Source: a virus. From it: 64,000 bases of DNA. The stretch is from UHGV virus genome UHGV-0041117; one strand, written 5' to 3'. The translations under genes and the position numbers were made by a program. Below the pieces are notes generated by a model. It saw only the letters and a list, made by a program, of their open reading frames with translations. It was not told the DNA's origin and did no database searches. How positions within the stretch are numbered: the stretch's first letter is position 1; every line of letters starts with the position of its first letter. This document shows positions 58,870 to 63,071 of the stretch, in pieces.

Positions 58870-59574
58870 TCAATTTGCTGCGTACTTCCTCATACCGGTG
58901 CGCAGCTCCTCTATGGTGGCCAAGAGCTTATCGCGTTCTTCCAGGAGCTTCCCCCGTTCTTCACGATACACGCGATTCTCCGCAACTATGCATTGCAAAA
59001 AATTCCCTGCGCTCGGGTCTTCTTGCGTCAGCAAGGTGACGATACGGTCTTCAAGACCGCGTCTGATAGACTCTGAGTCCCTGTAGCGTTCCAAAAGCAC
59101 GGACTTCTCCGCCGTGACCTTGCAAACGTCTGACTTGAGCTCCTCTATCCGGCTGTCCCGCTCACGGAGCTTGGCCCGGAGGTCATCGACTTCCGAGCCA
59201 ATAGCAGCAGTCTCCGTCACAGGAAACCTCACTACAGCAGGTCGCCCCTTCGGAGGGGAGTCACCAAACGGACGCGCCGACCCTACGAAAGACTCATTAC
59301 CCTCAAGTGGGATACACTCGCAATACACCCCCGTTCCGGTGAAGAAACCTACTCCACCGTCAGGCACCGCCCGCTGGAAAGAAAACACACCGACACGCCA
59401 AACCCTGGGGTCAATGGACTCAGGTCCACCACCCCGCACAAGGACAAACTGCCCCGGGAAAAACTTGCGTTCACCAGTACCCATCACAAAACTACCTCCA
59501 GAGTCCTTGGAAAAATATTTCACAAAACTCCTGAAAAATGAGTTCCAAAGACGAGCAGCCGCACCTGTGACCAT
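58870..59574 (-). CDS. hypothetical protein with C-terminal coiled coil (234 aa; alternative start 59484)
   Basis: ORF; both candidate starts have SD-like sequences. Confidence 0.5.
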   Translation of the reverse strand: MVTGAAARLWNSFFRSFVKYFSKDSGGSFVMGTGERKFFPGQFVLVRGGGPESIDPRVWRVGVFSFQRAVPDGGVGFFTGTGVYCECIPLEGNESFVGSARPFGDSPPKGRPAVVRFPVTETAAIGSEVDDLRAKLRERDSRIEELKSDVCKVTAEKSVLLERYRDSESIRRGLEDRIVTLLTQEDPSAGNFLQCIVAENRVYREERGKLLEERDKLLATIEELRTGMRKYAAN

Positions 59575-59583
59575 TTCACAAAC

Positions 59584-60222
59584 CTACCTTTGGGTCTCTT
59601 CCAGAAGCCTTCCATACAACGCTTCCGCCGGGTCCTCAGCCGCCGGGCAACGCCCCAGCCAGAACTCGGCCCACCGGTCGGACAGTTTGCGCAGCACCTG
59701 CCACTCCGGGCCGGAGGAGAACTGCGGGCAGGTGGCAATGGTCCCGCACAGGTACGTATCCAGACCGATGAACAACTCGGCACACCGATGCTGCAGCGTG
59801 TGCGATTCAGACCCCATAACGGCGTCAGCAATGGCGCGCAGATTCGCCATTTTCTTCTCGGCTGCAACAGAATCCCTCCTCCGGCGGACACTCGGCCAAC
59901 ACGCATCTATCGCGGCCCAAGTCTTCTCCCACAAGCCGGAGACCGGCTCCAGAACGCCAAGCTGGTCCCTGGACCAGAGCAGCGTGGCCGCGAGCATGAT
60001 GAGGACCATGGTACACCGGACATGCTGCCACGCCGGCGCCGGGAACTCCACAGGACCGATACTGTACGGCATCGTGGCCACGTACTGAGCCTCGGTGTAC
60101 CAGAGGGCCCCACAGGTCAAGCAACGCACCCAGGCCCCCTTGCCGGTCTTGCGCACGATTTCCCACTTCCGGTACTCCGGGTCGTGGTTCCGCTCAGTAC
60201 ACTGGCATGCGGGCTGGCGCAT
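59584..60222 (-). CDS. hypothetical protein with N-terminal Cys4 (Zn-ribbon-like) motif
   Basis: CQC...CLTC; 212 aa. Confidence 0.5.
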   Translation of the reverse strand: MRQPACQCTERNHDPEYRKWEIVRKTGKGAWVRCLTCGALWYTEAQYVATMPYSIGPVEFPAPAWQHVRCTMVLIMLAATLLWSRDQLGVLEPVSGLWEKTWAAIDACWPSVRRRRDSVAAEKKMANLRAIADAVMGSESHTLQHRCAELFIGLDTYLCGTIATCPQFSSGPEWQVLRKLSDRWAEFWLGRCPAAEDPAEALYGRLLEETQR

Positions 60223-60224
60223 GG

Positions 60225-60413
60225 CTACTCCTCCGCCGGGCCGCGCTTAGAGCTGGAGCGCTCGACATACGGCTGGACATGGAACAAGAGCGGAAGGGCC
60301 AACATGGGCACAACGAGCCACGGCGAAGCCCCGCCCCACACCAGCAAACCAAGCCAGCCCACGAGGGCCCACAGACCGGTATTCACAATAGCGGCGTATG
60401 TGAAAACGCTCAT
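60225..60413 (-). CDS. small hydrophobic membrane peptide (62 aa)
   Basis: RBS GGAGG; MSVFTYAAIVNTGLWALVGWLGLLVWGG...; N-terminal 17 aa duplicated at 61028..61114. Confidence 0.55.
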   Translation of the reverse strand: MSVFTYAAIVNTGLWALVGWLGLLVWGGASPWLVVPMLALPLLFHVQPYVERSSSKRGPAEE

Positions 60414-60438
60414 ACCAAACCTCCGAAACGGCCGCGCA

Positions 60439-60789
60439 TTACAACTGCGCTCTCAACCCAGCGAAGCAGAGCTGCTGCAGACCTTTTTCACCATAGAGCA
60501 CAGGGATACCATAAGAACCGGCACAATGGATTTCCGCCTCACATCCCCTGGGCAGTTTCGTGTTCCGGTCACGCTCTCCGATATAGAGCAGTACGTCGCA
60601 ACGGGAGAGGATTTTAAGCGATTCCCCCAGGCACCACAGTGCCTCATTCACACTCTCGGGTGGAACGTCGATGTAACTGTCCTCGACCACATGCCCGACC
60701 TTTTCCAACATCCTGCAAGCAAAGTTCCGGTCCGCGTAGATTTCTTCTTTCGTCTTGCCCTTCATGGGCTGGCTGATGAACACACGCAT
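60439..60789 (-). CDS. nucleoside 2-deoxyribosyltransferase-like (DUF4406/SLOG-like) protein
   Basis: MRVFISQPMKG ... CDVLLYIGERDRNTKLPRGCEAEIHCAGSYGIPVLY resembles the Rossmann-like NDT fold pattern. Confidence 0.5.
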   Translation of the reverse strand: MRVFISQPMKGKTKEEIYADRNFACRMLEKVGHVVEDSYIDVPPESVNEALWCLGESLKILSRCDVLLYIGERDRNTKLPRGCEAEIHCAGSYGIPVLYGEKGLQQLCFAGLRAQL

Positions 60790-60791
60790 GG

Positions 60792-60995
60792 CTAGTATCT
60801 CTCCTGATATTCTCCATCGACAAAATCCTCTTCCCTGGCCCTACGCGCTTCCATGTCGATGTCATCGTCATCAAGACGCTTCCATTCATCAGGCAGCATA
60901 TCACGCGCCTTAGCGAATGCTTCCTCATAATTTTCGGCCTCGACGATATACTTCTTCGGGCCCGCCATGGCCGTGACTGCGAATTTCCAACTCAT
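60792..60995 (-). CDS. small acidic protein (67 aa)
   Basis: RBS AAGGAG. Confidence 0.5.
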   Translation of the reverse strand: MSWKFAVTAMAGPKKYIVEAENYEEAFAKARDMLPDEWKRLDDDDIDMEARRAREEDFVDGEYQERY

Positions 60996-61027
60996 CGTGA
61001 TACGCTCCTTCTAGGTGCCAGCAATCA

Positions 61028-61114
61028 TCACCTATTTTCCATAAGGCCGGAGATTACGGCCGCGAGGGCCCACAGACCGGTATTCACAATAGCAGCATAC
61101 GTGAAAACGCTCAT
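61028..61114 (-). CDS. 28-aa hydrophobic peptide, truncated paralog of gene 60225..60413
   Basis: RBS GGGAGG; ATG overlaps upstream TGA (ATGA); MSVFTYAAIVNTGLWALAAVISGLMENR; ~52-bp DNA repeat with synonymous-only differences. Confidence 0.4.
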   Translation of the reverse strand: MSVFTYAAIVNTGLWALAAVISGLMENR

Positions 61115-61449
61115 CAGAAATCCAACCTCCCAATCTGCGGTCCCGAAGCGCTGGCCGACAACAAAGCAGAAACGTGAGCCGTCGCTTGCCGCTCCCCATC
61201 GTGTAAGCTGTACCCGGGACCCAACGTGATATAAAGGGACCCATCATTGCTGACGACGAAACCAGCGTCAGGAAACTTCTTGCGGATTTTATCCATGAGC
61301 GACCCCATATCCGAAGACACCCGGCGAAATCGCTTCAAAGCCCCGGGCACCTCCTCATCCAGCAGTTCTTCGGGAGCGAACCCGTAGTCTCCGATGGGGT
61401 CAGGGAACATCTTCTCGATGTCATCAGCGAAGTATATCTTGCCACCCAT
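61114..61449 (-). CDS. hypothetical protein (~111 aa)
   Basis: ATG MGGKIYFADD internal to ORF 61114..61515. Confidence 0.5.
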   Translation of the reverse strand: MGGKIYFADDIEKMFPDPIGDYGFAPEELLDEEVPGALKRFRRVSSDMGSLMDKIRKKFPDAGFVVSNDGSLYITLGPGYSLHDGERQATAHVSALLSASASGPQIGRLDF

Positions 61450-61615
61450 ACTACACCCCCGTCGAGCCATAACCGCCCGTGCCCCGGGCCGTAGCCGACA
61501 GCTCGCCGGTAGCATCTGTGAAACACACTGGGTAGATAGGCGTGTACAAGGCCCCGGCTGTGGTGACGGACATGATAGTGTTCCCCGTCATCATGGCGCA
61601 GGGGAGGATGATGAG

Positions 61616-62041
61616 CTATGCGATACGCTCTCCTACACGATAGGGATGCATCATGCCCTCTCGGCCCGGGTAGAGTTCGGCAAGTCTACGCGCCCTGGCA
61701 GCCTGGTCCCCGGGAACTTTGCGAAACATGACCTGGATGGTCCCCCGGTAATCGCTATCAACGACAGTCATACCGCCGCATTTTTCCAGGCCGGTCATAA
61801 AAATACTGGACCTGGCGCAGACGGCCCCAAAATATCCCTGGGGAATCTCTACAGCGAGACCGGTATCATAAATGTACAAATCATCGACCACTTCAAGTTT
61901 CGCGGCCGTCAGGTCCCAGCCGGCGGCCCCGGCACTCTTGCACTCAGGCAACTTGGCCCCGGGGAGTTCCAGACTGCACCGAACCTGGAAACAGGCCGTC
62001 GAAGACAACGCCGGCGTGATAGCAAATTGCTCTTCCAACAT
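61616..62041 (-). CDS. dut: dUTP diphosphatase (dUTPase)
   Basis: RBS GGAGG then ATG 62041; motifs AGWDL, RSSIFMTGLEKCGG, GMTVVDSDYRGTIQVMF. Confidence 0.8.
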   Translation of the reverse strand: MLEEQFAITPALSSTACFQVRCSLELPGAKLPECKSAGAAGWDLTAAKLEVVDDLYIYDTGLAVEIPQGYFGAVCARSSIFMTGLEKCGGMTVVDSDYRGTIQVMFRKVPGDQAARARRLAELYPGREGMMHPYRVGERIA

Positions 62042-62086
62042 ATTCTTACCTCCACTTGGATAGTGGGGCCAAGTGGGGGTTTTGTC

Positions 62087-62128
62087 AACAAAAAAATCCG
62101 GCCAGACCGGGGGAGGTCTGGCCGGATG
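62087..62128 (-). terminator. rho-independent terminator (minus strand)
   Basis: ATCCGGCCAGACC-GGGGGA-GGTCTGGCCGGAT followed on minus strand by TTTTTTTG. Confidence 0.65.
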
Positions 62129-62363
62129 GCCAAGGTGCCTATGCAGCGTCCCGTAGGGAGGGTGTCGCGCGGCATGTAGGCTGGGGGTGCTGAGTCCTGG
62201 TGCCCCGCCCCATCTGCTCAACCGCAGGCGGGATAGGGGCGGGGACTTTAAGTTTGGCGTTCCAGGGTAGGCGTCCGGTCACATACCCCAGAAACACATC
62301 GGGTGTGCAGCCACCCGACAGCAAACTGCACAAAACGTCACATCGTCTTGCTGTGAACTGACC

Positions 62364-63071
62364 CTACTTGGAAGATGCTCCGGTGTCAAGAGCTTTCGGG
62401 GCCAGGGACAAAATCTTGTACATGGCCTGCCGCAGATACTCAGCTTCCCACTCAGCATCGCACAAAGCATGGTGCGCGATACCGGTATCGGGTACCTCGA
62501 CAGTGATACCGAGGGACTCCACCAAGAACTCCACGGTCCTGAGCGACTGGTTGTTCCGATAAGTCCACACCTTCTGCAAAAGTTCGGCACCCTCCCGGGC
62601 AGAGAAGCCTTCAAGCGCACTGCGCCAGATGACGTTGTCGAACTCGGGTCCCTTCCCCCAGAACTGCACTGGGGCAGTCACGCCCCAAACCTCAGCATCG
62701 TGCTCCGTGTAATCCAGAATCCAGCGCCCGAAATCATCCACCGCCTGCGTCAAACGCACGGCGTTGTCATGGAACGCAGCGTTCCTCGCATCATCACTCG
62801 TACGAGTGACCCACCATTTCACGGTCGAGTAATCCATGGTCCGCCCATACTGACCGGCACCATGGATAGAGCGGTAGAACCTGCCGATGACCTTGTACTC
62901 ATCATCGAGGGCCACAGCCCCCACAGCCAGGATGACCGGATTGCCTCGAAGACCTAGCGTCTCCAAGTCAAGGACGATATGGGACAGCAATCTCCCCTGA
63001 GAGATTCCCTCAGTCAAACTCCAGGAAGGGAGCTCATCAGTAAATCTGTTCGCGTACTTGTCTTCGCTCAT
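62364..63071 (-). CDS. DEDDh 3'-5' exonuclease (DnaQ-like)
   Basis: RBS GGAGG then ATG 63071; Exo I VLDLETLGL, Exo III HHALCDAEWEAEY. Confidence 0.75.
   Translation of the reverse strand: MSEDKYANRFTDELPSWSLTEGISQGRLLSHIVLDLETLGLRGNPVILAVGAVALDDEYKVIGRFYRSIHGAGQYGRTMDYSTVKWWVTRTSDDARNAAFHDNAVRLTQAVDDFGRWILDYTEHDAEVWGVTAPVQFWGKGPEFDNVIWRSALEGFSAREGAELLQKVWTYRNNQSLRTVEFLVESLGITVEVPDTGIAHHALCDAEWEAEYLRQAMYKILSLAPKALDTGASSK

Follow-up and report, generated by a model that had tools for sequence, protein, structure and literature searches.

A repeated gene start in an uncultured phage genome as the probable scar of a crossover between related phages

The phage genome studied here carries twice, on the same strand, the beginning of a gene for a small membrane protein of 62 amino acids. 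This repeat is very probably the scar of a non-allelic crossover that joined two related phage genomes: it belongs to a known class of mosaic junctions and does not make a new peptide family. One copy begins the intact gene; the other begins a reading frame of 28 amino acids which, to judge from sequence comparison, is made of codons 1-17 or 1-18 of the 62-amino-acid gene followed by the last 10-11 codons of a different gene, here called TM63.

The repeated segment and its neighbourhood

The window, by which we mean the whole stretch of 64,000 nucleotides that was analysed, covers most of an uncultured phage's genome, whose size is about 65-67 kb and whose G+C content is about 60%. Its genes include those for tail fibres, a family A DNA polymerase, a helicase and a primase, and for MoxR/CobS-like and CobT-like proteins. 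The DNA of the 2.8-kb region under study has no match among 50,697 GenBank phages, and the large terminase of the phage shares only about 31% identity with those of cultured podoviruses of Rhizobium, Pseudomonas and Pelagibacter, so that there is no annotated relative to draw on.

On the minus strand, positions 60362-60413 and 61063-61114 form a direct repeat of 52 nucleotides with 3 mismatches, where the chance expectation is 0 (no match in 100 dinucleotide shuffles). The initial annotation had described this repeat, with a second interval that was off by one base, and the observation of a direct repeat with silent differences only is confirmed. The two reading frames are where it placed them, on the minus strand, at 60413..60225 for 62 amino acids and 61114..61028 for 28, and each has the Shine-Dalgarno site ascribed to it: GGAGG, 6 nucleotides upstream of the long frame, and GGGAGG, 11 nucleotides upstream of the short one. 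The start codon of the short frame does overlap the stop codon of the gene before it, but the overlap reads TGATG, with one nucleotide shared, and not ATGA as had been claimed. The annotation also held that the three differences are synonymous, and proposed to align the segments and count the kinds of change: within codons 1-17 the codon alignment gives 3 synonymous and 0 non-synonymous changes, namely ACA/ACG, TAC/TAT and GCC/GCT, all at third positions. A repeat search lengthens the match to 55 nucleotides, 60359-60413 versus 61060-61114, with a fourth mismatch that turns codon 18 from Val to Ala.

All the genes of the locus lie on the minus strand, and are read in the order exonuclease, dUTPase, 111-amino-acid gene, 28-amino-acid frame, 67-, 116-, 62- and 212-amino-acid genes. 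The features that matter in what follows are these:

First in the block, minus strand: 3'-5' exonuclease gene (Rv2179c-like)
61449..61114, minus strand: 111-amino-acid gene, phrog_27273, of unknown function
61114..61028, minus strand: 28-amino-acid frame, chimeric, reading MSVFTYAAIVNTGLWAL followed by AAVISGLMENR and a stop; probable recombination scar
61063..61114, minus strand: repeat copy 2, the first 52 nucleotides of the 62-amino-acid gene, reaching 61060 with the microhomology CTCG.GG
61028..61062, minus strand: tail of the chimera, an in-frame homologue of the last 35 nucleotides (stop included) of the TM63 gene of the L002/L003 group
60996..61027, minus strand: spacer, with the stub ATGATTGCTGGCACCTAG and the Shine-Dalgarno site AAGGAG of the 67-amino-acid gene
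60792..60995, minus strand: gene of a 67-amino-acid acidic protein, first cassette gene
60439..60789, minus strand: 116-amino-acid gene, second cassette gene, nucleoside 2-deoxyribosyltransferase-like or DUF4406-like
60414..60438, minus strand: spacer, with GGAGG 6 nucleotides before the ATG of the 62-amino-acid gene and the motif GTTTCGGAGGTTTGGT
60225..60413, minus strand: intact 62-amino-acid gene, whose repeat copy 1 (60362-60413) has the haplotype ACA TAC GCC
59584..60222, minus strand: 212-amino-acid gene, the downstream neighbour conserved in every architecture

The automatic list of open reading frames gives the 111-amino-acid gene as a frame of 133 amino acids, 61114..61515. Its stop, TGA, has one base in common with the ATG that follows, and in most relatives what directly follows it is the full 62-amino-acid gene. 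The extra DNA that separates the two copies, in the window and in two independent assemblies, amounts to 701 bp and holds the 67- and 116-amino-acid genes. The 67-amino-acid protein is 82-91% identical to those encoded in the L002 phage group; the 116-amino-acid product matches phrog_355 at 3.9e-11 and Pfam DUF4406 at 18.2 bits, under the cut-off of 22. A weak hairpin-forming sequence at 60354-60379 (minus strand), CCGGTCTGTGG GCCC TCGTGGGCTGG with G-T pairs counted, covers precisely the end of the repeat, where the recombination join is placed; this may be chance.

We retrieved about 20 loci and mapped all the local proteins onto each. A word-indexed search with the 62-amino-acid protein returned close relatives only; these are spread over many contigs, each about 65 kb long, that come from independent metagenomes. 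In the majority, 11 loci (L001, L007-L010, L012, L015, L016, L019-L021), the 111-amino-acid gene abuts a single 62-amino-acid gene, and the order in most close relatives is 111-, 62-, 212-amino-acid gene. Three genomes, the window (identical to L011), L013 and L034, have the double-copy order: 111-amino-acid gene, 28-amino-acid frame, then the 67-, 116- and 62-amino-acid genes. In L017 the 116-amino-acid gene stands alone before the 62-amino-acid gene; in L018 an unrelated 101-amino-acid gene takes that place, and in L014 it is frameshifted. The motif GTTTCGGAGGTTTGGT is common to these last three loci, in which the 62-amino-acid gene follows a 116- or 101-amino-acid gene.

The insertion is present or absent among close relatives, 11 single-copy loci against 3 double-copy lineages, with colinear flanks whose genes are 88-100% identical at the protein level. 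That the window, L013 and L034 share one colinear layout points to a single origin followed by spread. The spacer 60996..61027 is identical across the three. The double-copy structure has recombined further since its origin: at the DNA level, the 116-amino-acid gene of L013 and L034 shares only about 75-78% identity with that of the window, against 94-100% in the flanks.

Homologues of the 67- and 116-amino-acid genes, at 76-91% protein identity, occur in a second group of phages (L002, L003, L024, L025, L028-L030, L035), where the order is dUTPase, 98-amino-acid gene, 213-amino-acid gene, TM63, 145-amino-acid gene, a variable stretch, the 67-amino-acid gene and sometimes the 116-amino-acid gene. 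The cargo thus has a different context there, downstream of TM63 in the L002/L003 group. The stub ATGATTGCTGGCACCTAG is possibly a remnant of the 145-amino-acid gene of this donor group.

More generally, the slot from the dUTPase gene to the 62-amino-acid gene is a hot spot of gene swapping (window 60414-61449; L017, 2600-3000; L018, 2505-2845; L014, 2660-3000); phages with near-identical backbones carry at least four different contents in it. The 101-amino-acid gene found in it is a homologue of the second group's 104-amino-acid gene. In L034, both Shine-Dalgarno sites are weakened, from GGGAGG to GGGAAG before the 28-amino-acid frame and from GGAGG to GGGGG before the 62-amino-acid gene (changes located at 430-470 and 1140-1166), and both frames are intact.

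The short reading frame and its two sources

TM63 is a family of membrane proteins of 60-63 amino acids, with 153 members. Its tail is near-invariant, VIISDLMEN followed by K or R, that is, IWLVVIISDLMEN followed by K or R and the stop, and its stop codon overlaps the ATG of the next gene. In the 28-amino-acid frame, codons 1-17 are those of the 62-amino-acid gene, and the last 35 nucleotides are, in frame, the 3' end of a TM63 gene: the tail reads AAVISGLMENR in the window, and AAVISDLMENR in L013 and L034, each followed by the stop. Taken with the next ATGA, this tail is 38 nucleotides long, and in every TM63-bearing locus the place where it matches best, at 7-10 mismatches, coincides exactly with the 3' end of TM63. 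The count never falls below 13 for shuffled tails (mean 17), and it is 16-18 in loci that lack TM63. Both the frame of the donor gene and the overlapping ATGA start of the gene that follows it are kept after the tail. At the join, the sequences are TGGGCCCTCGTGGGC in the 62-amino-acid gene and TGGCTCGTGGTC in TM63, with the microhomology CTCGTGG in common. The short frame is thus found to be a fusion of fragments of longer genes and, both parent genes being longer and widely conserved, the chimera is the derived state. Homology between the 62-amino-acid and TM63 proteins was also considered: compared by eye, the two show no evident likeness beyond hydrophobicity.

The tail differs from every sampled TM63 allele in at least 7 of its 38 nucleotides, and exact-pattern scans of IMG/VR and JGI metagenomes with the tail, stub and spacer patterns found no donor. 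The donor genome, parent B below, is therefore one that we infer.

From the observed architectures, homologies, polymorphism statistics and independent occurrences, we infer the parents and the order of events as follows. Parent A would have had the order dUTPase, 111-amino-acid gene, 62-amino-acid gene, 212-amino-acid gene, with the start of the 62-amino-acid gene at the stop codon of the 111-amino-acid gene. Parent B would have carried the module of the second group, TM63, a remnant of the 145-amino-acid gene, and the 67- and 116-amino-acid genes, upstream of its own 62-amino-acid gene with its own GGAGG. An illegitimate or microhomology-guided crossover, both parents having CTCGTGG at the join, would have connected parent A, after codon 17 or 18 of the 62-amino-acid gene, to parent B, about 11 codons before the end of TM63. 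The product would contain the first 52 nucleotides of the 62-amino-acid gene twice: the upstream copy, continued in frame by the TM63 tail, would form the 28-amino-acid frame, and the downstream copy would be the start of the intact gene. A single crossover of this kind would duplicate exactly the stretch of the 62-amino-acid gene that lies upstream of the join, for a net gain of 701 bp and two cargo genes.

The junction of the 116- and 62-amino-acid genes occurs in L017 without any duplication. The direct repeats of 52 nucleotides could, in turn, allow the cassette to be lost by homologous pop-out. L001 and L007 have a mixed haplotype, ACG then TAC GCC, which could be the product of such a pop-out, and could equally well come from ordinary recombination. 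A target-site duplication of the transposon type was rejected: the repeat measures 52 nucleotides, neither a transposase nor a homing endonuclease is encoded in the cargo, and part of another gene has been joined to the short copy.

Two readings deny that a crossover made the repeat. It is extremely improbable that the contig is a chimera of two strain variants, produced by the assembly. The window does come from a metagenome assembly (it is the same as L011 over 6189 nucleotides, and the same as the MEGAHIT contig k141_560865 of ENA ERZ27287529), and several strains of the phage co-circulate. However, the initial annotation itself named an artefact as what would refute it, and the repeat survives this check: independent assemblies of at least three samples, which differ in their alleles and in the assembler used, gave the same gap-free layout, L013 (ERR3229862) and L034 (ERZ28584257) both being colinear with the window without gaps; and the repeat, at 52 nucleotides with mismatches, is shorter than the k-mer implied by the contig name (k141). 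Three colinear genomes from different samples and assemblers make the double-copy structure genuine. The model of the initial annotation, a tandem duplication in place whose paralogues then diverged under purifying selection, accounts for the spacing of 701 bp between the copies, for their common orientation, and for the fact that, in the part they share, all their differences are silent. It is nevertheless very improbable, and already contradicted by the data: what lies between the copies is foreign cargo, whose homologues belong to another phage group; the short copy takes its tail from a different gene; the copies have unlike upstream contexts, each of which is seen alone in single-copy genomes; and the haplotypes of the copies match alleles that segregate in the population, swapped in L013.

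A further reading concerns what the short frame does. It would be a functional new micro-protein, a single-span membrane peptide that shares the first span of the 62-amino-acid protein and acts as its partner, its dominant-negative form or its antiholin-like regulator, or else a bridging frame that couples translation from the 111-amino-acid gene into the cassette. The frame is intact in all three independent double-copy genomes; its start site is inherited, and is the one that serves the full gene where there is a single copy; about 21 of its residues form a hydrophobic stretch, enough to cross the membrane once; the TM63 tail is fused in frame; and the frame ends 32 nucleotides before the ATG of the 67-amino-acid gene. 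Still, we hold this reading to be unlikely, in each of these versions. The frame is found in a minority of genomes only. Its tail has two known alleles, whose lone difference, D23G, is the sole variation in the part unique to the frame; it is non-synonymous, and falls on a residue that is near-invariant in TM63. Of the 11 residues of the tail, 3-4 depart from the TM63 consensus. The silent differences in codons 1-17 are fully explained by the polymorphism of the full-length gene and, since a tail of 11 codons rarely gains a stop by chance, the intact frame weighs little. If the reading held, a peptide made of the first span of one protein and the conserved SDLMENR-type tail of another, with a coupled start, would have taken up a new function: with its single span it might modulate the two-span protein, by pairing with it or poisoning it, or else feed ribosomes into the cassette, and in either case would be a micro-protein born from the fusion of gene fragments at a phage mosaic junction.

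Under the crossover reading, which we prefer, the peptide is most simply a tolerated by-product. The short frame takes over the translation start region of the full gene and, this working start site being inherited, the peptide is probably made. An in-frame fusion has one chance in three of arising at random; together with the frame being intact three times over, it is compatible with some selection for the peptide.

Silent differences and standing polymorphism

The initial annotation took the silent-only pattern as purifying selection on a tiny transmembrane peptide. This stands for the 62-amino-acid protein and fails for the 28-amino-acid one. The full-length gene, across its 14 unique alleles, has a pN/pS of 0.07; its codons 1-17 taken alone have a pS of 0.29 and a pN of 0.007. 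The synonymous and non-synonymous differences between the two copies number 3 and 0 in the window, 5 and 0 in L013, and 5 and 0 in L034, and all of them fall at sites where the population is polymorphic: nucleotides 15, 18, 21, 27, 33, 36 and 51. Random pairs of alleles differ, over the same 17 codons, by 4.2 synonymous and 0.4 non-synonymous changes on average, and 51% of the pairs have at least 3 synonymous differences and no non-synonymous one.

Two haplotypes dominate: ACG TAT GCT..ATC, mostly with the 111-amino-acid gene upstream, and ACA TAC GCC..ATT, mostly in the context of GTTTCGGAGGTTTGGT. In the window, each copy bears the haplotype of its own context, ACG TAT GCT for copy 2 and ACA TAC GCC for copy 1, as expected if each of two parental lineages supplied one copy. 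L013 has the haplotypes the other way round, with an upstream copy that is the same as the downstream one of the window. The differences are silent because the copies come from different allelic lineages of a strongly selected gene, at sites that were polymorphic beforehand. Consequently, the pattern reports selection on the 62-amino-acid gene in the population, together with recombination, and not selection on the short frame. Silent-site diversity is about three times denser in codons 1-17 than in the rest of the 62-amino-acid gene, which is expected at a recombination boundary.

The short copy has neither a conservation independent of the long copy nor a synonymous excess of its own. Looking for the peptide in related phages, another check proposed at the outset, finds the 28-amino-acid frame missing in most close relatives; its tail comes from TM63, and the proposed small peptide family of two selected copies is not supported. 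A caution follows for similar cases: where a repeat can draw on the circulating alleles of a selected gene, silent-only differences between two repeats in one genome are no proof of selection on both copies.

The membrane protein and comparable systems

The 62-amino-acid protein is small and hydrophobic; two membrane spans are predicted in it, and its C-terminal tail is charged. An exhaustive search by profile brought up five clusters at 50% identity, and only these, of 55-78 amino acids, which share with it the motif GW(L/I)(A/G)WLV. Its pN/pS of 0.07 and its remote homologues indicate that this small membrane protein is real and conserved, and that purifying selection on it is strong. Small genes of early type surround two of the five remote clusters, and one of these two stands two genes upstream of a restriction-alleviation gene of the Lar-like kind; the 62-amino-acid gene itself is in a nucleotide-metabolism block, and its neighbours are exonuclease and dUTPase genes, a deoxyribosyltransferase-like gene and genes of unknown function. 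Pfam, PHROGs, NCBIfam and PADLOC have no match for the 62-, 28-, 67- and 212-amino-acid proteins or for TM63; among the proteins searched, the exceptions are phrog_27273 for the 111-amino-acid protein and sub-threshold noise, including a spurious UbiA match.

The holin or antiholin role suggested in the initial annotation finds no match in these four libraries, and no endolysin was detected nearby. Class II holins, or pinholins, such as S21 of phage 21, resemble the 62-amino-acid protein in their small size, two hydrophobic segments and charged C-terminal tail. In contrast to them, our protein has no sequence match to any holin family and no dual-start motif, its gene is in a nucleotide-metabolism block with no endolysin detected adjoining it, and its remote homologues are found also among early-type small genes. 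Our best guess is an early-expressed inner-membrane protein with a role in host takeover or of the exclusion type, and not a holin; this is inference only, since among the roughly 60 open reading frames scanned no endolysin was recognised and the lysis genes of the phage are thus not located. A strongly constrained protein of no known family in an early-type block is a modest candidate for functional study.

The junction itself has a close parallel in mycobacteriophages: at gene 68 of Island3, compared with Brujita, repeats of about 50 bp from the end of a neighbouring gene flank an inserted gene (PMC3029335). In both cases the cassette is present in some close relatives only, a repeat of about 50 bp from the adjoining gene lies at both borders, and either intermolecular recombination or a pop-out deletion between the repeats would explain the structure. 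The two cases differ in that the duplicated piece is the 5' end of a gene here and the 3' end there, in that the fusion here is in frame with the tail of a third gene and yields a translatable chimera of 28 amino acids, and in that population data here reveal copies with different allelic haplotypes.

[quoted passage not shown] The two cargo genes here likewise lie between genes that are contiguous in most relatives. However, the cassette has no promoter- or terminator-like signals of its own, in a tightly packed operon that relies on Shine-Dalgarno sites and coupling, and it entered inside a gene and not between genes. A scan by consensus only found no promoter-like site in 59500-62400, and the only strong terminator-like hairpin is at 62127..62096, upstream of the dUTPase gene; the cassette is not a classical moron. 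Junctions inside genes are rarer than joints at gene boundaries, and the present one, with both parental modules identifiable, documents a hot spot of swapping between the dUTPase and 62-amino-acid genes in uncultured phages of about 65 kb, and illustrates how a translatable chimeric micro-frame can originate.

The hairpin at 62096-62127 (minus strand) lies between the exonuclease and dUTPase genes, and has a stem of 13 bp, 9 of them G-C pairs, followed by TTTTTTT. Its presence suggests a transcription unit of their own for the genes from dUTPase to the 212-amino-acid gene.

The dUTPase gene of the window (about 62041..61451) has a TAG at 61616-61618 (minus strand), where relatives have CAG (Gln). 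Recoding of TAG was considered for this interrupted gene and rejected: TAG terminates the 67-amino-acid gene, and the window contains no tRNA. The codon looks like a nonsense mutation or a sequencing error. The protein ends at 141 amino acids, versus 194-196 in relatives, and loses the C-terminal motif RGTGGYGSTG; the rest of the gene persists as a separate open reading frame of 47 amino acids, 61594..61451.
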